Source: Rikenella microfusus | GTDB taxonomy: Bacteria; Bacteroidota; Bacteroidia; Bacteroidales; VadinHA17 | Reading direction: 5' to 3' | NCBI GenBank assembly: GCA_022736275.1 | Contig: DZBJ01000005.1 | Span: forward strand, 456-64,455 | Length of the DNA stretch: 64,000 nucleotides | Shown: one piece after another, positions 10,537-56,995 of the stretch | Layout of the letters: each line of letters starts with the position of its first letter | How positions within the stretch are numbered: position 1 is the stretch's first letter | Notes under the pieces: generated by a model | The model's database searches: none | What the model saw: only the letters and a program-made list of their open reading frames with translations | What the model was told of the DNA's origin: nothing | Position numbers and translations under genes: made by a program

Positions 10537-10571
10537 CAGTCTGCAGTCAACAGTCTGCAGTCCACAGTCTA
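10537..10571 (+). repeat. Heptanucleotide array CAGTCNN x5
   Basis: Units: cagtctg cagtcaa cagtctg cagtcca cagtcta, in perfect 7-nt phase. Confidence 0.85.
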
Positions 10572-10628
10572 AAGTAAACAGGAGGTCATTAATTTACAAA
10601 CAATCAGATATATGACTTGCATACTAAG

Positions 10629-10663
10629 GACTGCCGACTGAGGACTGAGGACTGCTGACTCCT
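10629..10663 (+). repeat. Heptanucleotide array GACTGNN x5 (inverse complement of the CAGTC words); overlaps the recG stop codon
   Basis: Units: gactgcc gactgag gactgag gactgct gactcct. The recG TAG occupies 10662-10664. Confidence 0.85.
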
Positions 10664-12779
10664 AACTGATCTCGCTCCATGAGCACTTCTTTCCGAAAAG
10701 CTTCCGCAGAGTGGCCCTGAGCACCTGGTTTACCGGACGGGCAAGCTCAGGGTCATCACCGAGTATCTCCTCCGCCCGCGAGCGTGCGAGGTTGAGTATC
10801 TGACCGTCCCTCCCCAGGTCAGCAATTTTAAGGTCGAATGCCATGCCGCTTTGCTGCGTTCCCTCAAGATCACCCGGACCGCGCATGCGGAGATCAGCCT
10901 CGGCTATCTCAAAGCCGTCATTGGTCGCAATCATCGTGTTGATGCGCTCGGAGGCTTCCGCAGAGCGTTTATGCGATGTCATCAGGATGCAGTACGACTG
11001 GTCGGCACCGCGGCCCACCCGCCCCCGCAACTGATGCAACTGCGAGAGACCAAATCGCTCGGCACTCTCTATCACCATCACACTGGCGTTTGGGATGTCA
11101 ACACCCACCTCTATTACCGTGGTGGCAACCATTATCTGTGCCTGGCCGCGACGGAACAGGTTCATCGAGATCTCCTTGTCCTTCGACGTCATCCGGCCGT
11201 GCACCACGCTTATGCAGTACTGCGGCGGAGGAAAGGCTCGTGCCATGCTCTCAAGCCCGTCTTCAAGATCCTTATAATCAAGAGATTCCGATTCTCTTAT
11301 CAAAGGGTAGACCACGTATATCTGCCTTCCGTCCTCTATCTGTCTCCGCATGAAACCAAATACCTTTTCGCGCTCAGCATCGGTGAAGCTCATCGTCTTA
11401 ACCGGCTTGCGTCCGGGAGGCATCTCGTCAATGACCGAGACATCAAGGTCACCGTAGAGTGTCATCGCCAGCGTGCGGGGGATAGGTGTTGCCGTCATCA
11501 CCAAAACATGTGGCGGACAGTCGCTCTTCTGCCATAGCTTTGCACGCTGCGCCACACCAAAACGGTGCTGCTCGTCAATAATCACCAGCCCGAGATTCTT
11601 GTATCTGACGTTCTCCTCAATAAGGGCATGCGTGCCAATAAGTATAGTAATAGTACCGTCAAGCAACCCCTGCTCTATACGGGCCCTCTCTCTCCGTTTC
11701 GTCGAGCCTGTCAGCAGCGCCACCTCTGCATCAATCCCCTCCACAAACCGGCTTACTGAATTGTAGTGCTGTATTGCAAGCACTTCCGTGGGGGCCATTA
11801 TACAACTCTGAAAACCGTTGTCGGCCCCGATGAGCATGCTCATCAGAGCAACCATCGTCTTGCCGCTGCCCACATCGCCCTGCAGAAGCCTGTTCATCTG
11901 GTGACCGCTGCCCAGGTCACTCCTGATCTCACGTATGACCCTCTTCTGCGCCTCAGTCAGGGCAAAGGGCAGGTTGTTGGCGTAAAACGAATTAAGCCTC
12001 TCACCCACAACGGAAAAGAGAAAACCGCGCGTGTTCTTCGTCCTGCTTCCCTTGTACCTTAACAGGTTCAGTTGAATATAAAAGAGCTCCTCGAATTTTA
12101 ACCTGAACCGGGCATTCTCTATGTCAGTATTCGAGTCTGGAAAATGGATGCGGAGGAGTGCATCCTGGATACTCATCAGCTTCATCTGCCGGGTGATGGA
12201 ATCAGGCAGTGTCTCCGCAAAGCGAAGCCCCGGAAGTGTAAAGGCGGTGGCTATCAGCTTCGCAACAGCCTTTGATTGAAGGAAGTGATCCTTCATCTTC
12301 TCGGTGGTGCTGTACTGAGCTTCGAGGGCTGAGGCGACCCTCGATTCGCGCTTCTCAACCTCCTCCACCTCAGGATGGACTATGTTGAAGGCCCCGCTGA
12401 ACAGGGTTGGTTTGCCATATATAATGTACTCTTTTTCAATTTTGTATGCATTGAGCACCCATTTGTGCCCTTTGAACCACACCAGCCTCACCATCCCCGT
12501 GTCATCATAGTAATCAGCAGTAAGTCGTGAGCCCCTTCCGCCACCCTCGGTTGAGAAGCGCCGGATCTTTCCCCTGAGCTGGATGTACTGCATGTCGGTG
12601 TCAAGCTCACTGACCTTATAAAAACGGGTCTTGTCAATATACTTGTATGGGAAGTAATAAATGAGATCCCTGAAGGTGCGGATATCAGCCTCCTCCCCGA
12701 GCAGTTCGGCTCTCTTCGGGCCAACCCCCGGAAGGAATTTTATCTCACTGTCAAGGAGTTCTGACATCAGGAAAAGCAT
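10662..12779 (-). CDS. recG: ATP-dependent DNA helicase RecG
   Basis: 705 aa with helicase motifs GDVGSGKT, DEQHRFGV and QLHQLRGRVGRG plus an N-terminal wedge/OB region. An alternative ATG lies at 12767. Confidence 0.95.
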   Translation of the reverse strand: MLFLMSELLDSEIKFLPGVGPKRAELLGEEADIRTFRDLIYYFPYKYIDKTRFYKVSELDTDMQYIQLRGKIRRFSTEGGGRGSRLTADYYDDTGMVRLVWFKGHKWVLNAYKIEKEYIIYGKPTLFSGAFNIVHPEVEEVEKRESRVASALEAQYSTTEKMKDHFLQSKAVAKLIATAFTLPGLRFAETLPDSITRQMKLMSIQDALLRIHFPDSNTDIENARFRLKFEELFYIQLNLLRYKGSRTKNTRGFLFSVVGERLNSFYANNLPFALTEAQKRVIREIRSDLGSGHQMNRLLQGDVGSGKTMVALMSMLIGADNGFQSCIMAPTEVLAIQHYNSVSRFVEGIDAEVALLTGSTKRRERARIEQGLLDGTITILIGTHALIEENVRYKNLGLVIIDEQHRFGVAQRAKLWQKSDCPPHVLVMTATPIPRTLAMTLYGDLDVSVIDEMPPGRKPVKTMSFTDAEREKVFGFMRRQIEDGRQIYVVYPLIRESESLDYKDLEDGLESMARAFPPPQYCISVVHGRMTSKDKEISMNLFRRGQAQIMVATTVIEVGVDIPNASVMVIESAERFGLSQLHQLRGRVGRGADQSYCILMTSHKRSAEASERINTMIATNDGFEIAEADLRMRGPGDLEGTQQSGMAFDLKIADLGRDGQILNLARSRAEEILGDDPELARPVNQVLRATLRKLFGKKCSWSEIS

Positions 12780-25219: not shown

Positions 25220-27388
25220 ATGGATTCTTCAGTACATATAAACATCATTGCTCAGAAACTCCGGCTGCACGACTGGCAGGTGGAGAATACCCTGCGTCTC
25301 ATTGATGACGGAGCAACAATACCCTTTATAAGCCGCTACCGCAAGGAGGTCACCGGCAGTCTCAATGAGGTCCATCTGGCGGAGATCCGTGACGAGTATG
25401 AGAGACTAAGAGAGCTCGACAAGAGGAGAGAAGCAATTATCAAGTCGATCATAGAGCAGGAGAAGATGACCCCGGAACTGCTGGCAAAGATCAATGCTGC
25501 GCTGACTCTGTCCCAGCTCGAAGATATCTACCTCCCCTACAGGCCCAGGAGAAAAACCCGCGCCTCAGTGGCAAGGGAGAGGGGACTAGAGCCTCTTGCC
25601 CTGTGGCTGCTTGAACAGGTACCCGGAGATCCCTATATTGAAGCGGAAAAATACCTGGGTGATGAGGTGGAGACAGCCGATGCAGCCCTGGCAGGTGCTC
25701 GTGACATCATTGCCGAGATGATCAGCGAGGATGAACAGGTGCGGGGTTCACTGAGAAGACTGTATGAACGTGATGCCGTAATCACTTCAAAAGGGGTGAA
25801 AGGCAAGGAGGAGGAGGGGAATAAGTTCAGGGATTACTTCGAGTGGTCCGAGCCCCTGCGCCGCTGTCCCTCACATAGGCTGCTGGCTATGCTCCGCGGC
25901 GAGGAGGAGGGCTTCCTCAGGCTTACAGTATTGCCGGCCGGTGATGATGCTGTCGAGACAGTGGAAAAGGTGATTGTCATGTCAAATAATGGCGCTTCCC
26001 GTCATGTGAAGGAGGCTGTTGCCGACAGCTGGAGCCGCCTGCTCGCTCCCTCTATGGAGACTGAGTTCAGAAAAACATCAAAGGAAAAGGCTGACGGGGA
26101 GGCGATACGCGTTTTTGCCGATAACCTCAGGCAGTTGCTGCTTTCTCCCCCTCTGGGAGAGAAGAGCGTCTTGGCCCTTGACCCGGGGTTCCGTACCGGC
26201 TGCAAAGTCGTCTGCCTCGACAGGCAGGGGTCAATGCTGCATCATGACGTTATCTACCCGCATCCGCCACAGAACGAGACCGCCCGCAGCGTCAGCAAAT
26301 TACTGTCTCTGATAGACAAATTCAGCGTGGAAGCAATAGCCATAGGCAATGGCACTGCCAGCCGCGAGACGGAGAAACTGATCAGACAGTACCTTACGCC
26401 GGGGTCTCCTGTTAAAATATACGTGGTGAGCGAAGCAGGCGCATCAGTCTATTCAGCTTCAAAAACTGCACGCGATGAGTTCCCGGATCATGACGTCACC
26501 GTACGTGGTGCCGTCTCCATCGGCCGTCGACTCATGGACCCTCTGGCGGAGCTCGTGAAGATAGATCCTAAATCCATTGGCGTCGGACAGTACCAGCATG
26601 ATGTCGACCAGACGCGGCTGCAGACCAGCCTTGACGAGGTGGTGATGTCATGCGTCAACGCAGTGGGAGTAGAGGTGAACACCGCCAGCCCCCATCTGCT
26701 TACTTACGTCTCCGGACTGGGACCTAAACTGGCGCAGAACATAGTGGCCCATCGCACGGAGAAGGGCCCGTTCATATCTCGATCTGAGCTGATGAAGGTG
26801 AAAAGAATGGGGGAAAAAGCCTATGAACAGGCTGCAGGTTTCCTAAGAATAAGAAACGCGGACAACCCGCTTGATGCCTCGGCTGTGCATCCCGAAAGCT
26901 ATCATATCGTGGAGAGAATGTCACGCGATGCCGGATGCACCGTGGCTGACCTGATAGGGGATGAGACGAGGCGAAAATCCATTAATATCGAAAAGTATAT
27001 TACCCCTGAGGCCGGACTGCCAACACTGAAGGATATTATGCTGGAACTGGCAAAACCGGGGCGCGATCCGCGGTCGTCAATACAGGAGTTCAGCTTTGCG
27101 GACATACACTCGCTCGAGGATGTGAAGGAGGGAATGGTCGTGCCGGGAATTGTGACGAACATAACGAAGTTTGGAGCGTTTGTAGACATAGGCGTTAAGC
27201 AGGATGGACTGGTGCATGTCTCCCAGATGTCAGACCGCTACGTCGATGACCCGTCAAAGCTGGTTAAGCTCCATCAGCAGCTTATGGTGAGAGTCGTCAG
27301 CGTGGATCTTGCACGGAAGCGGATTCAGCTGACGCTGAAAGGAGTCGGCAGTCCACAGCCCACAGTCGGCAGTCATTTTAGGCAATAG
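25220..27388 (+). CDS. tex: Tex-family transcription accessory protein (S1 domain RNA-binding)
   Basis: 722 aa with TIPFISRYRKE, a YqgF-like core and a C-terminal S1 domain (GMVVPGIVTNITKFGAFVDIG). The last 15 codons lie in a heptad repeat array. Confidence 0.92.
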   Translation: MDSSVHINIIAQKLRLHDWQVENTLRLIDDGATIPFISRYRKEVTGSLNEVHLAEIRDEYERLRELDKRREAIIKSIIEQEKMTPELLAKINAALTLSQLEDIYLPYRPRRKTRASVARERGLEPLALWLLEQVPGDPYIEAEKYLGDEVETADAALAGARDIIAEMISEDEQVRGSLRRLYERDAVITSKGVKGKEEEGNKFRDYFEWSEPLRRCPSHRLLAMLRGEEEGFLRLTVLPAGDDAVETVEKVIVMSNNGASRHVKEAVADSWSRLLAPSMETEFRKTSKEKADGEAIRVFADNLRQLLLSPPLGEKSVLALDPGFRTGCKVVCLDRQGSMLHHDVIYPHPPQNETARSVSKLLSLIDKFSVEAIAIGNGTASRETEKLIRQYLTPGSPVKIYVVSEAGASVYSASKTARDEFPDHDVTVRGAVSIGRRLMDPLAELVKIDPKSIGVGQYQHDVDQTRLQTSLDEVVMSCVNAVGVEVNTASPHLLTYVSGLGPKLAQNIVAHRTEKGPFISRSELMKVKRMGEKAYEQAAGFLRIRNADNPLDASAVHPESYHIVERMSRDAGCTVADLIGDETRRKSINIEKYITPEAGLPTLKDIMLELAKPGRDPRSSIQEFSFADIHSLEDVKEGMVVPGIVTNITKFGAFVDIGVKQDGLVHVSQMSDRYVDDPSKLVKLHQQLMVRVVSVDLARKRIQLTLKGVGSPQPTVGSHFRQ

Positions 27389-27397
27389 GCAATAGTG
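27342..27397 (+). repeat. Heptanucleotide array, 8 units (CAGTCNN then GGCAATA words)
   Basis: Units: gagtcgg cagtcca cagccca cagtcgg cagtcat tttaggc aataggc aatagtg. It contains the tex stop codon (27386-27388). Confidence 0.85.
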
Positions 27398-27405
27398 TCA
27401 ATGAT

Positions 27406-27483
27406 AGCCCGTAGGGCTTATAGTATTGTAGATTAATGTTATATAAATAAATCTCTTTCCCGTAGGGGATATATTATTGTAAA
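27406..27483 (+). repeat. Two hairpin + TATTGTAGA units (GTA triloop, 5-bp stems)
   Basis: Unit 1: agccc-gta-gggct + tatagtattgtaga (27406-27432). Unit 2: ttccc-gta-gggga + tatattattgtaaa (27457-27483). Both are homologous to the inverted units at 53680-53757. Confidence 0.75.
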
Positions 27484-47412: not shown

Positions 47413-47461
47413 ATTTCCGATTGTCGATTTCCGATTTAATCGACAATCGCAAATCGACAAT
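47413..47461 (+). repeat. Heptanucleotide array, 7 units (ATTGTCG/ATTTCCG/CGACAAT words)
   Basis: Units: atttccg attgtcg atttccg atttaat cgacaat cgcaaat cgacaat. It also contains the 8-bp inverted repeat attgtcga/tcgacaat. Confidence 0.85.
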
Positions 47462-51640: not shown

Positions 51641-53371
51641 ATGGATACAAAGTTTGCGCTTCACGGAATAGACTATATGGTAATGATAGTCTATTTTGCT
51701 TTTGTACTGGGTATTGGATGGGCCCTCAAGAAGTACATGAAAAACGCCTCCGCCTTTCTTGAGGCGGGCAGGTCAATACCGGCCTGGGTGGCAGGGCTGG
51801 CATTCATCTCAACCAACCTGGGGGCACTTGAGGTGATGGGGATGACGGGCTCCGGCCTCAAGTACGGGATGCTCACAACCCATTTCTACTGGATAGGCGC
51901 AATCCCGGCCATGGTCTTCCTGGCACTTTTCATGATGCGTTTCTATTACGGCTCAAAGGCCCGCTCGGTGCCTGAGTATCTTAAGCTTCGGTTCAATGAG
52001 AAGACCCGCGGCCTGAATGCAATCCTGTTCGCAGTCATGACTGTGCTGGCATCAGGTATCTCCATGTATGCCCTTGCAATCCTTCTTGAGAATGTGCTCG
52101 GGTGGAACTTCAACGTTTCGCTGCTGGCCTCGGCGGCAATAGTGCTTGCCTATACATATCTGGGAGGTCTCTCTTCCGCAATCTACAACGAGGTTCTGCA
52201 GTTCTTTATCATCATTATCGGCCTGCTTCCCATGGCTTTCCTTGTCATGAAAGATGTGGGCGGATGGAGCGGCATGCAGGCGAGTCTTGCTCCCATTGTA
52301 GAGAGCAGGGGGTTTGCAGCCGACACCTGGACGTCAACCTGGAAGTATACTGCCACTGAAACGGGAAATCCGCTCGGAGTGGCGTGGTACGGTATTTTCG
52401 CAGGACTGGGATTCGTCCTGTCATTCGGCTACTGGTGCACCAACTTCCTTATTGTTCAGCGTGCAATGGCGGCCGAATCGATGACTGCGGCACGCAAGGT
52501 GCCCCTCATCGGAGCAATACCCAAGATGTTCATTCCCTTCCTTATAATTGTTCCCGGCATTGCGGCACTGGTACTGCTTAATGACCCGCTGAAGGGATTT
52601 GCCCTGCCCCTGAATGATGCCGGACAACCAATATATGACTATACCATTATCATGCTGCTCAAGCAGTACCTTCCCGCAGGTGTCCTTGGCCTCGGTATCA
52701 CGGCACTGCTCGCATCATTCATGTCAGGGATGGCCGGAAACGTTTCAGCATTCAATACGGTATGGACGTATGACATCTACCAGAGCTACATCCGCCCGGC
52801 CACCGGTAACAAGGAGAGTGATGACAGACATTATCTCAAGGTCGGGAAGATGGCTACCATATTTGGGGTTCTTGTAAGCATAGCAGCAGCCTACGTGGCA
52901 AGTAAGTTCGGCAACATCATGGACTTCCTCCAGACTATCTTCTCAATGATCAACGCCCCGCTGTTTGCGGTCATATTCCTGGGTATGTTCTGGAAACGGT
53001 CAACGGGCAATGCAGCTTTTACGGGACTTCTCGTCGGTTTCCTGATCGCGCTCCTGCACCACGGACTGACACAGCCTGAGGGTGCAACAACCCTTGTCAA
53101 GGGCGGCTGGCTCGGTGTGATTCATACTTACCCGGTGGAGATGGCTCAGAACTTCTGGACCGCTATAATTGCATTTACATCCTCCACCTTTCTTACAGTG
53201 CTGATATCACTGCTTATGAAACGCGAAAAGAGCGATGAGGATCTCAACGGACTTGTCTATTCCATGACACCAAGACTCGACGACAGCAGTGTGATGTGGT
53301 ACAGCAGACCCTGGTTCCTTGCACTGATAGTGGGAATCGTTATGATTGTTCTATCTATTTTGTTCTGGTAA
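51641..53371 (+). CDS. Sodium:solute symporter family (SSF/SGLT-like) transporter
   Basis: 576 aa with about 13-14 TM and typical SSF blocks (AGRSIPAWVAGLAFISTNLGA, GGLSSAIYNEVLQ). Confidence 0.85.
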   Translation: MDTKFALHGIDYMVMIVYFAFVLGIGWALKKYMKNASAFLEAGRSIPAWVAGLAFISTNLGALEVMGMTGSGLKYGMLTTHFYWIGAIPAMVFLALFMMRFYYGSKARSVPEYLKLRFNEKTRGLNAILFAVMTVLASGISMYALAILLENVLGWNFNVSLLASAAIVLAYTYLGGLSSAIYNEVLQFFIIIIGLLPMAFLVMKDVGGWSGMQASLAPIVESRGFAADTWTSTWKYTATETGNPLGVAWYGIFAGLGFVLSFGYWCTNFLIVQRAMAAESMTAARKVPLIGAIPKMFIPFLIIVPGIAALVLLNDPLKGFALPLNDAGQPIYDYTIIMLLKQYLPAGVLGLGITALLASFMSGMAGNVSAFNTVWTYDIYQSYIRPATGNKESDDRHYLKVGKMATIFGVLVSIAAAYVASKFGNIMDFLQTIFSMINAPLFAVIFLGMFWKRSTGNAAFTGLLVGFLIALLHHGLTQPEGATTLVKGGWLGVIHTYPVEMAQNFWTAIIAFTSSTFLTVLISLLMKREKSDEDLNGLVYSMTPRLDDSSVMWYSRPWFLALIVGIVMIVLSILFW

Positions 53372-53390
53372 CCCTAAAAAAATAAAGATC

Positions 53391-53603
53391 ATGTTAGATA
53401 TAAGATTTCCGATTGGACTGATGTTCTCGATCTTCGGGCTGATAATTACGGTTTACGGCCTGATAACAATAGGCAATACTGAAATGTATGAGCGCTCGCT
53501 GAACGTGAATGTTAACCTGGTATCAGGATTGTGCACTCTGGCCTTCGGCCTGGTAATGCTCTTCCTTTCAGACCCGGTGAAGAAGATTCTCAGGAAAAAA
53601 TAG
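53391..53603 (+). CDS. Small 2-TM membrane protein downstream of the symporter
   Basis: 70 aa from the ATG at 53391 with two hydrophobic helices. Context is the only other evidence. Confidence 0.4.
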   Translation: MLDIRFPIGLMFSIFGLIITVYGLITIGNTEMYERSLNVNVNLVSGLCTLAFGLVMLFLSDPVKKILRKK

Positions 53604-53679
53604 TCATCCGGGAAGACAAAAAAAGCTGCGTGAGCAGCTTTTATTATCTAAATCAATATCGATTTTCTTTGTCATTAGG

Positions 53680-53757
53680 TCTACAATACTTCATGACCTA
53701 CGGTCAAAGATTCTAGTTATAATTAACTATTCTACAATATTTTATGGCCTACGGCCA
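53680..53757 (-). repeat. Two hairpin + TATTGTAGA units (inverted copies of those at 27406-27483)
   Basis: The minus strand reads tggcc-gta-ggcca + taaaatattgtaga (53757-53731) and tgacc-gta-ggtca + tgaagtattgtaga (53706-53680). Confidence 0.75.
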
Positions 53758-53765
53758 ACTCCTCA

Positions 53766-53828
53766 CTATTGCCTTCTGCCTATTGCCTGAAATGACTGCC
53801 GACTGAGGGCTGCCGACTAACGACTGGT
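53766..53828 (-). repeat. Heptanucleotide array, 9 units, abutting the lysA stop codon
   Basis: Plus-strand units: ctattgc cttctgc ctattgc ctgaaat gactgcc gactgag ggctgcc gactaac gactggt. The minus strand reads CAGTC-type then GGCAATA-type words. Confidence 0.85.
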
Positions 53829-54979
53829 TATATATCATCGGAAAATACCGCCGGCGGCAGCGAACGCATGTTGTAGCGCATCGCCATCACCTCCCCGTAG
53901 GCCCCGGCCGACCTGATGGCAATGAGGTCACCACGTCCGGTCTCAGGCAGTGAAATGAATTTCCCGAAGATGTCAGTGCTCTCACAGATAGGTCCTGCAA
54001 CGGTATATTTCCCGGGTGGCAGCACCGAGGTGAGATTTTCGATACGGTGGAAGGCGTGGTAGAGCGCGGGCCTCAGCAGGTCTGTCATTCCGGCGTCAAG
54101 GATGATAAAGGTCTCACTGGTACCTGGCTTCACATAAAGCACCTTAGAGATCAGGGCGCCGCACCCGGCGGTGAGTGATCTGCCAAGCTCAAAGGATATG
54201 GTGCTGCGTATCTTCCTGTCAAGATGCTCCCTGAAAATATCGAAGTAATCGGCAAAGGAGGGAAACCGGTCAGGCTCCTCGTAACTTATGCCAAGTCCTC
54301 CGCCCAAATTGATATCCTCAGGCTCCATTCCCCTGTCGGTGAACCATTGCCATAGCTCGTTCACCCTCAGGCAGAGATTCCGGTAGACATGGAGATCGGT
54401 TATCTGCGAGCCTATGTGGAAATGAATTCCTCTGAAGTCGATGTTCTCCAGCCCGGACAGGAGGGAGATCACCTTCTCAAGTTCGGCAATCCTTATGCCG
54501 AATTTGTTCTCATCGGTTCCGGTTGTAATATGTTTTAGCGTATGGGCTTCGACGTTTGGATTGATGCGCAGCGCCACTGCTGCCCGTCTCCCTGCCTTGC
54601 CTGCAATTTCATTTAAAACTTCCAGCTCTGCTGCCGATTCTGCATTGAAGCATTTTATCCCGAGCTTCAGGGCAGTCTCAATCTCCCGGTCGCTCTTGCC
54701 AACACCCGCAAAGACCGTTTCGTCTGCCGGAAATCCGCAGTTCACAGCCAGATCAATCTCATTGCCACTGACACAGTCTGCCCCAAATCCGTACCCTGCA
54801 ATTATCTTCATTATCACGGGGTTGAAGTTGGCCTTGACGGCATAATGTACCTTAAAACCCCTTTTGGCAGCCTCCCCTGAGGCTACGGCAAGCGTCTCCC
54901 GCAACAGGTCGAGATCATAATAGTAGAAGGGAGTCTCGTGTCTCTTCAGCTTTCCAGTCAATTCAGTCGTGAACATCAT
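53828..54979 (-). CDS. lysA: Diaminopimelate decarboxylase
   Basis: 383 aa with the PLP-Lys block HYAVKANFNP, NLGGGLGISY and GPICESTD. Confidence 0.92.
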   Translation of the reverse strand: MMFTTELTGKLKRHETPFYYYDLDLLRETLAVASGEAAKRGFKVHYAVKANFNPVIMKIIAGYGFGADCVSGNEIDLAVNCGFPADETVFAGVGKSDREIETALKLGIKCFNAESAAELEVLNEIAGKAGRRAAVALRINPNVEAHTLKHITTGTDENKFGIRIAELEKVISLLSGLENIDFRGIHFHIGSQITDLHVYRNLCLRVNELWQWFTDRGMEPEDINLGGGLGISYEEPDRFPSFADYFDIFREHLDRKIRSTISFELGRSLTAGCGALISKVLYVKPGTSETFIILDAGMTDLLRPALYHAFHRIENLTSVLPPGKYTVAGPICESTDIFGKFISLPETGRGDLIAIRSAGAYGEVMAMRYNMRSLPPAVFSDDI

Positions 54980-56494: not shown

Positions 56495-56522
56495 GACTTT
56501 TGACTTTTGACCTTTGACTTTT
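56495..56522 (+). repeat. Heptanucleotide array GACTTTT x4
   Basis: Units: gactttt gactttt gaccttt gactttt. It ends 4 nt before tRNA-Leu(CAG). Confidence 0.9.
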
Positions 56523-56526
56523 AATA

Positions 56527-56610
56527 GCCCAGATGGCGAAATTGGTAGACGCGCTAGTTTCAGGGACTAGTGTCAGCAATGATGTGCAGGTTCGAGTCCT
56601 GTTCTGGGCA
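56527..56610 (+). tRNA. tRNA-Leu (anticodon CAG)
   Basis: Hand fold: acceptor gcccaga/tctgggc, D-arm gcg-aaattggtaga-cgc, anticodon stem ctagt/actag with loop ttCAGgg, a long variable arm, and T-arm gcagg-ttcgagt-cctgt. No CCA is encoded. Confidence 0.9.
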
Positions 56611-56619
56611 CAAAAATCT

Positions 56620-56696
56620 GCACAGAGCACAGTGCAAGGAGCACAGAGCAGTAACATTATGCCCTGAGCCCTGAGTTCTGAGCCCTGAGCCAAAAC
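56620..56696 (+). repeat. Heptanucleotide array, 11 units, filling the inter-tRNA spacer
   Basis: Units: gcacaga gcacagt gcaagga gcacaga gcagtaa cattatg ccctgag ccctgag ttctgag ccctgag ccaaaac, all in one phase. Confidence 0.9.
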
Positions 56697-56697
56697 C

Positions 56698-56781
56698 GCC
56701 CAGGTGGTGAAATTGGTAGACACGCCAGCTTGAGGGGCTGGTGCTCGCAAGGGTGTGCAAGTTCGAGTCTTGTCCTGGGCA
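56698..56781 (+). tRNA. tRNA-Leu (anticodon GAG)
   Basis: Hand fold: acceptor gcccagg/cctgggc, D-arm gtg-aaattggtaga-cac, anticodon stem ccagc/gctgg with loop ttGAGgg, a long variable arm, and T-arm gcaag-ttcgagt-cttgt. Confidence 0.9.
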
Positions 56782-56790
56782 CACAAAAAA

Positions 56791-56820: not shown

Positions 56821-56869
56821 GAGTTCTCAGTCAGCAGTCTTCAGCCGGCAGTCATTTCAAGCAATAGAG
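56821..56869 (+). repeat. Heptanucleotide array, 7 units (CAGTCNN then GCAATAG)
   Basis: Units: gagttct cagtcag cagtctt cagccgg cagtcat ttcaagc aatagag. It shares ggcagtcattt.a.gcaatag with the arrays at 27342 and 53766. Confidence 0.85.
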
Positions 56870-56884
56870 GGGCGAGCGTTAATA

Positions 56885-56903
56885 AATGACCCAGTGGGTC
56901 ATT
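56885..56903. other. 8-bp hairpin with a triloop
   Basis: aatgaccc-agt-gggtcatt, lying between two heptad arrays. Confidence 0.6.
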
Positions 56904-56946
56904 TTAGCGATGCAGCCAGATTGCAGGGTAGGCAAGGGAATTTTTG

Positions 56947-56995
56947 ATTTCAGATTGTCGATTTAATCGCACAAATCGTAAATCGCAAATTGGCA
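56947..56995 (+). repeat. Heptanucleotide array, 7 units (ATTGTCG/ATCGNAA words), ending 1 nt before the GH3-gene stop codon
   Basis: Units: atttcag attgtcg atttaat cgcacaa atcgtaa atcgcaa attggca. It shares attgtcg + atttaat + cg with the array at 47413, which has one extra unit (atttccg) between them. Confidence 0.85.

Follow-up and report, generated by a model that had tools for sequence, protein, structure and literature searches.

The 3' flank of lysA is probably best described as a head-to-tail doublet of a dispersed REP-like family lying beside unrelated heptanucleotide arrays, the whole pointing to a REP/RAYT-like system. The repeat is REP-like, selfish or domesticated, and is not a signal specific to lysA. 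The lysA copy is an ordinary member of its family, and the element is probably of little consequence for lysA itself. It was found in a window of 64,000 nt (the whole stretch of DNA that was analysed) from a 3.15-Mb, 188-contig MAG of an uncultured Bacteroidales (G000), with close relatives that carry the label Rikenellaceae or Rikenella.

On the minus strand, the lysA ORF encodes a protein of the Orn/DAP decarboxylase family (Pfam Orn_Arg_deC_N and Orn_DAP_Arg_deC), and its stop codon runs directly into the element (Table 1). The order of parts described in an earlier note on this DNA was confirmed base for base; only the inter-unit spacer, given there as 24 nt, has to be lengthened to 25 nt, as the shorter figure assigns one A to the tail. 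The gene names lysA and tex used in that note hold as well. The hairpin of unit 1 is present in the predicted RNA fold. Because an intrinsic terminator (53642-53621, minus strand) comes after the element, the latter falls inside the predicted 3' UTR of lysA. A small ORF at 53346-53603 on the plus strand (85 aa as called) converges on lysA and uses the same terminator. The ORF has no Pfam match. Its sequence is 84-92% conserved in relatives, which makes it probable that the ORF is a genuine gene for a small membrane protein.

Table 1. Coordinates of the lysA 3' flank, of its paralogue at tex and of related repeats (window positions unless a contig is named)
Feature	Position	Strand	Basis or remark
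lysA stop codon TAA	53828..53830	-	ORF 53828..54979 on the minus strand
Five CAGTCNN-type heptads (ccagtcg ttagtcg gcagccc tcagtcg gcagtca)	53793..53827	-	sequence; TRF period 7
Junction TTTC plus three and a half GGCARTA heptads (tttcagg caatagg cagaagg caatag)	53766..53792	-	sequence; alignment with the tex copy
8-nt spacer tgaggagt, belonging to the recurrent boundary GGCARTA-GTGARRANT	53758..53765	-	boundary shared by at least 11 loci
Hairpin-tail unit 1, TGGCC-GTA-GGCCA-TAAAA-TATTGTAG	53732..53757	-	covariance model R1, 42.5 bits, E 6e-7
AT-rich 25-nt inter-unit spacer	53707..53731	-	aligns with the tex spacer
Hairpin-tail unit 2, TGACC-GTA-GGTCA-TGAAG-TATTGTAG	53681..53706	-	R1, 44.8 bits, E 1.5e-7
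Intrinsic terminator, AAAAGCTGC-TCAC-GCAGCTTTT plus T run	53613..53642	-	common to lysA and the convergent small gene ending at 53603
Paralogous composite at the tex end: heptads plus two units	27342..27483	+	sequence; R1 model; alignment with the lysA copy
tex unit AGCCC-GTA-GGGCT	27406-27431	+	R1 model
tex unit TTCCC-GTA-GGGGA	27457-27482	+	R1 model
Third copy of the heptad junction core, CAGCCGGCAGTCATTTCAAGCAATAGA	56842..56868	+	then a different structured repeat instead of hairpin-tail units
Second structured repeat, window copy	56874-56926	+	
Second structured repeat, other copies in G000	C15:16020, C18:48389, C18:37, C21:4714, C81:80600, C111:137545, C135:14606, C141:106714, C141:43842, C150:6686, C183:23523		

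The unit itself is a compact structure of 26 nt, made up of a 5-bp stem, a GTA triloop closed by a C-G pair, a T with a 4-nt linker, and the tail TATTGTAG. The sequence of the stem is free and its pairing is kept, the two arms covarying. This was seen in a test that was anchored on the exact tail only, at 101 sites on both strands, and did not select for pairing. A fully paired stem (5/5 pairs at the fixed upstream offset) was found at 38 of these sites, against a chance expectation of 0.75, and the loop was GTA in 33 of the 38. The fully paired sites hold 18 different stems, with both pair orientations at four stem positions. Because a test anchored on the tail does not favour paired stems, it is the hairpin that is kept, rather than any particular stem sequence. 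GTAG is nearly invariant; it ends the 8-nt tail and begins 10 nt 3' of the stem, variant families having ATAG, and a second GTAG in the unit is formed by the loop together with the base that opens the 3' arm.

A covariance model (R1) built from 43 units gave 81 matches in this genome, or about 80 units, which are spread over 34 loci. Units follow one another head-to-tail on one strand with a spacing of 45-54 nt, and tandem arrays of identical unit plus spacer occur. The 34 clusters include 17 doublets (the commonest form), 4 triplets and 3 longer arrays, and all lie between long ORFs except for the cluster on contig C19, over which a 92-aa ORF extends. The final G of the tail is retained in 34/35 internal units but in only 20/34 last units (p = 1e-4), a pattern that fits an element boundary at ...TATTGTA. 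Two variants of the unit were also noticed, one with TGCGC-GTA-GCGCA hairpins that repeat every ~45 nt and have purine-rich tails instead of TATTGTAG, the other with a second hairpin (CCCCGATAAATCGGGG-like) inserted after GTAG; such variants are found at L141 (the tex flank of G016), at L114 2021-2260 and at C11:38430-38480 and C69:4330-4380 of G000.

A local alignment of the lysA and tex versions of the composite extends over ~140 nt with 111 of 133 columns identical (83% identity) and scores 101, whereas 500 shuffles gave 15.6 +/- 2.2 and a maximum of 27, in agreement with the earlier argument against chance low complexity. The core CAGTCGGCAGTCATTT(C/T)AGGCAATAGG differs between the two at one position, and the single 7-nt gap corresponds to exactly one extra heptad in the lysA copy, both as had been described. 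As spacers are shared too, the two versions do descend from one 140-nt piece. The junction CAGTCATTTYARGCAATAG has three copies genome-wide, all of them inside the window. The statement that the element lies immediately 3' of both stop codons holds for lysA; at tex, the CAGTCNN heptads belong to the ORF, which is closed by a TAG within GGCAATAGG and ends at 27388 (window 27342-27388). The C-terminus of tex over this stretch (plus strand), ...LKG-VGSPQPTVGSHFRQ-stop, is encoded by CAGTCNN and GGCAATA heptads, and that of lysA in G036/L002, ...VFSD-QAIGNRQ-stop, by GGCAATA heptads (L002 2640-2670). The C-terminal tails of congeners differ, and heptad arrays extend into coding ends.

The heptads are themselves a genome-wide feature. 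Period 7 is the commonest TRF period in this genome, with 276 arrays and a further 59 of period 14 (335 together), and CAGTCNN triplets number 221 compared with 4 for a reversed-pattern control. Of 137 CAGTC arrays genome-wide, 106 have the same sense as the gene upstream. The 36 congeners contain between 0 and 450 heptad triplets each and between 0 and more than 112 units each, and the two counts are unrelated. In addition, a unit comes after only 7 of 70 GGCARTA arrays, and the recurrent boundary GGCARTA-GTGARRANT-unit is found before first units. The composite is thus a juxtaposition of two independent repeat systems, because heptads and units are uncorrelated among congeners and few GGCARTA arrays precede a unit; the idea of a single fixed element was rejected on the same grounds. 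The proposal of a mobile or selected, oriented 3' module is therefore upheld only in part: the element is repeated, oriented and probably mobile, but it is not a fixed module of ~140 nt tied to tex and lysA. Nor are the heptads supported as by-products of a Y1 system, given that G007 has 450 CAGTC triplets, 0 units and no Y1 gene, whereas G016 has 64 units and a Y1 gene but 1 CAGTC triplet.

Several other structures are associated with the heptads. A second dispersed structured repeat, GAGCGTTAA-GAAA-[hairpin TGAYCC-GGTG-GGRTCA]-TTTTAGCGAAG-CAGCCAGNTTGCAG, has 12 copies in the genome, every one of them surrounded by GGCARTA heptads; further copies are found in tex flanks (G001, G009, G012 and G016), and the repeat has no Rfam match. 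Many intergenic gaps pair a heptad array with its own reverse complement (CAGTCNN ... GACTGNN; TCGATTN ... AATCGAC), which makes long imperfect hairpins possible; examples in the window are 10537-10669, 47413-47461, 56495-56522, 56620-56696 and 56947-56995. Two tRNA-Leu genes (56527-56611 and 56698-56782) are bordered by different heptads.

Relatives were compared at both loci, as the earlier note had suggested. The closest species-level relative in the genome collection, L002 (identical to G036:C16), has a lysA of 83% nucleotide identity, and in its lysA flank the heptad core is still present, unit 1 has decayed and unit 2 is intact. Unit 2 of the lysA doublet is orthologous to this intact unit, which keeps an identical stem and flanks. 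A metagenome scan yielded one useful close relative, the contig L124 (lysA 95% identity), and two unrelated matches. L124 has a nearly identical terminator, preceded by an entirely different spacer of GGCARTA, AAGAATT and GACTTTN heptads; no units were found in its lysA flank. The remaining orthologous lysA flanks have other heptads or nothing. Since the lysA copy is common to the 83% relative and missing from the 95% relative, it is old, and some lineages have lost or replaced it. The tex locus presents a similar picture: the unit next to the downstream peptidase gene is found again in G017, G036, G012, G006 and G021 with stems that differ and are still paired. The tex doublet has been amplified several times in G036, and the tex flanks of other genomes carry heptads only or a short plain spacer.

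A candidate for the enzymatic partner of the units emerged from a survey of relatives, in which a Pfam Y1_Tnp search of 60 genomes was combined with a scan of 30 Y1 loci with the unit model and with tblastn. Units are present in 24 of 36 congeneric genomes, compared with 2 of 24 genomes of other families. One Y1 clade, 59-100% identical to the G005 copy, occurs in eight congeners, with one clade copy per genome. In six (L105, L114, L115, L116, L121, L122), the Y1 gene has converging units on both sides, whose tails point inward to the gene independently of its direction; at L106 and L117 units were found left of the Y1 gene only. None of these units was found near the Y1 genes of other Bacteroidales families among the 30 loci scanned. 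More distant Y1 homologues (41-47% identity) stand between unit variants of their own, which follow the same plan. A G001 variant, ACCCC-GAA-GGGGT-GACAT-TATGATAG, has a 49-nt period and also occurs in the tex flank of G001; a G034 variant, ...CCTG-TTTGTAG, has a 52-nt period; and bracketing with other variants is seen in L112, L120 and L108. Judged from these sequences, the type of unit and the type of Y1 enzyme change together.

The Y1 protein of 158-163 aa carries the motifs DHIHIL, SWQEGYG and YRYIENQEIHH. It reaches 58.2 bits with the NCBIfam IS200 model NF033573 (cut-off 55) and falls below the RAYT model NF047646 (16.3 bits, cut-off 80). It also matches, weakly, the structures of ISDra2 TnpA (2xm3, E 3e-4) and IS608 TnpA (2a6m). 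Its motifs fit TnpA_Y1 subclass 1.2, an assignment made from motifs rather than from a tree. With the Y1 proteins of congeners as tblastn queries, the cognate gene was not found in the assembly of this genome, nor was it found in the assemblies of four unit-rich congeners (G006, G029, G030, G036). For this reason the units in this genome may be relics; alternatively, the Y1 gene may have been missed in the assembly. Failed assembly of an array-flanked Y1 gene would agree with the arrays that face outward from the end of C47 and from the starts of C85, C56 and C62. The sole Y1_Tnp match of this genome in the Pfam search, an IS200-type N-terminus at the end of C126, has an ordinary IS200 hairpin and no units near it.

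By analogy with the TnpA of IS200/IS605 and with the RAYTs, a single-copy Y1/HUH enzyme of TnpA_Y1 subclass 1.2 would most likely bind the unit as folded single-stranded DNA. Cleavage and rejoining close to the tail would then allow new intergenic sites to receive copies of the unit, as well as tandem amplification at a period of ~50 nt, and the units may still be mobile at present. Lying between the stop codon and the terminator, the lysA doublet is therefore probably carried passively in the lysA 3' UTR.

The orientation of the units calls for separate consideration. Units share the sense of the gene upstream of them in 24 of 30 clusters in this genome and in 27 of 32 in G036 (51/62, or 82%; combined p 3e-7), and in convergent gaps each gene has a separate sense-oriented set. 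The orientation relative to genes that had been claimed is thus real, although not absolute, as 11 of 62 clusters are antisense or in divergent gaps. No bias of the unit strand was seen relative to local GC skew (16/31), and a replication-strand bias was rejected on this result. A sense bias that is not accompanied by a GC-skew bias is not predicted by replication-coupled, single-strand insertion of the IS200/IS605 kind, and it would be compatible with an RNA-level role or constraint. It is mainly for this reason that we retain, as an unlikely but serious alternative, the view that the units act mainly as RNA. They would then form a selected 3'-UTR or intercistronic module, for example an RNA-binding-protein site or a signal for 3'-end protection or processing, in which the GUA triloop and the UAUUGUAG tail are read on the transcript and the Y1 enzyme merely disperses the units or is unrelated to their maintenance. 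At 22 of 22 loci in this genome there is no terminator between the stop codon and the units, which are thus probably co-transcribed; this, the covarying stems with their fixed loop and tail, and the position of the lysA copy between stop and terminator all speak for such a role. However, the number of copies varies between 0 and more than 100 within the genus, and orthologous sites freely gain and lose units, which is unlike a conserved regulatory signal. The tandem arrays of identical unit plus spacer, the antisense and divergent-gap clusters, the convergence on the Y1 gene whatever its direction and the lack of an Rfam family match for the units also count against it.

More specific roles in transcription were also considered. 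At the same 22 loci, terminator-like sites near units number 0 before and 2 after, too few to count for or against a link with terminator placement. A sigma-70 promoter scan was at chance level, and the tail does not seem to fit the Bacteroidetes -7 motif. Rfam returned only two tRNAs for the whole window at the gathering threshold, and in E-value mode only sub-threshold terminator look-alikes for 53550-53900.

In another version, the sense bias would be built into the mechanism itself: a domesticated Y1 enzyme of subclass 1.2 would place or keep units on the transcription-exposed, non-template strand at gene ends, and once transcribed the units would function as 3'-UTR or intercistronic modules of the mRNA. 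We consider this to be quite improbable. If it were true, the system would be more than purely selfish DNA, in that it would "write" structured RNA punctuation behind genes.

Two further readings, a degenerate CRISPR-like array and an array of operators bound as duplex DNA by a dimeric protein, are very hard to sustain. The regular ~50-nt period, with a 26-nt repeat and a ~24-nt spacer, would be in keeping with these readings, and the tail UAUUGUAGA presumably resembles the 3' end of Cas12a repeats. However, the stems of neighbouring units differ, whereas CRISPR repeats are identical within an array. In addition, the spacers are repeated within arrays and between loci, and the units are scattered over 34 loci with mostly one or two units each. 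As for operators, a duplex site would hold its half-sites constant, while the half-sites here change and yet stay complementary, which indicates a folded single strand. Finally, a chance likeness between the tex and lysA flanks, suggested by heptads that are simple-sequence DNA and by AT-rich inter-unit spacers, is refuted by the alignment score, the excess of paired stems at the tails, model matches that reach E 1e-7 or better, and the excess of heptad triplets over their control.

The REP-like reading can be set against what is known of each component, beginning with the heptads. Long simple-sequence heptanucleotide repeats of bacteria have been described (Mrazek 2007, as cited in PMC4679880), and TAACTGA repeats occur in Beggiatoaceae, Cyanobacteria and some Bacteroidetes (MacGregor 2015, PMC4679880). 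Like these, the heptads here form period-7 intergenic arrays, strand-biased relative to neighbouring genes and very patchy among relatives, and as tandem period-7 arrays far above chance they qualify as LSSRs. They differ in sequence (CAGTCNN, GGCARTA, AAGAATT, AATCGCA) and in location, being found mainly past stop codons in the sense orientation and not just upstream of starts. The cyanobacterial STRR are a further heptanucleotide repeat for comparison. For annotation, some caution is advisable, since units and heptads extend into coding ends and 3' UTRs, where they could be mistaken for gene-specific signals.

With IS200/IS605 elements (IS608, ISDra2 and the non-autonomous PATE derivatives), the system shares the fold family of the enzyme, as indicated by the structural matches. 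The layout of the unit, a small hairpin followed ~10 nt on by a short conserved site, is presumably that of the IS608 right end, which may serve as a lead. In contrast to these elements, the Y1 gene here is single-copy rather than multi-copy, the same unit stands inverted on both flanks instead of distinct left and right ends on one strand, the units spread without the gene, and the GC-skew bias is not seen.

The enzyme can be compared with TnpA_Y1 subclass 1.2, which has been described as a low-copy group of ~148 aa with the motifs DH[IV]H, WQ and Y---Q--HH, found in Cyanobacteria and Bacteroidetes and without REP or IS200-type ends (Quentin, Siguier, Chandler, Fichant 2018, PMC6006769). The motifs, the short protein with its own C-terminal tail, the low copy number and the occurrence in Bacteroidetes all agree. 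Unlike in the published description (PMC6006769), the Y1 genes here are bracketed by cognate mini-hairpin arrays that are also dispersed genome-wide, and no later account of partner repeats of this subclass turned up in our literature search. Thus, a Y1 subclass published as repeat-less would have compact cognate repeats consisting of a 5-bp stem, a fixed triloop and a tail, with a sense bias downstream of genes. Such a unit would be a small, well-defined substrate for studying DNA recognition by class-1 Y1 enzymes, and the units are a possible explanation of many broken Bacteroidales MAG assemblies.

The joint persistence of a transposase and its short repeats in bacterial lineages is best known from the REP/RAYT systems, which have been worked out almost entirely in Proteobacteria. 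For comparison we used descriptions of REP/BIME repeats with their RAYT (TnpA_REP), together termed REPtrons (Nunvar 2010, PMC2817692; Ton-Hoang 2012; Messing 2012, PMC3479197; Di Nocera 2013, PMC3733652). As in those systems, short extragenic hairpin units, here with a nearly invariant GTAG, are present in tens to hundreds of copies per genome, are clustered and amplified in tandem, and vary together with their enzyme. At 26 nt with a 5-bp stem, the unit falls within the 20-40 nt extragenic stem-loop that defines a REP, and a single-copy Y1/HUH gene bracketed by inverted copies, as in REPtrons, is seen in congeners though not in this assembly. Head-to-tail dimers and GTAG repeats with a 5-bp stem have also been mentioned (PMC3733652). 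On the other hand, the Y1 enzyme lies outside the RAYT model and belongs to class 1 rather than class 2. The stem, compared with classical REPs, is only 5 bp long with a fixed triloop, and GTAG stands at the 3' end of the tail, 10 nt past the stem, instead of against it. Unlike the inverted pairs of REPINs and BIMEs, the units here are mostly arranged head-to-tail at ~50 nt, and a further difference is their strong sense bias relative to the upstream gene. Enzyme (class 1, subclass 1.2), unit design and head-to-tail layout therefore all differ from the REP/RAYT systems described so far.
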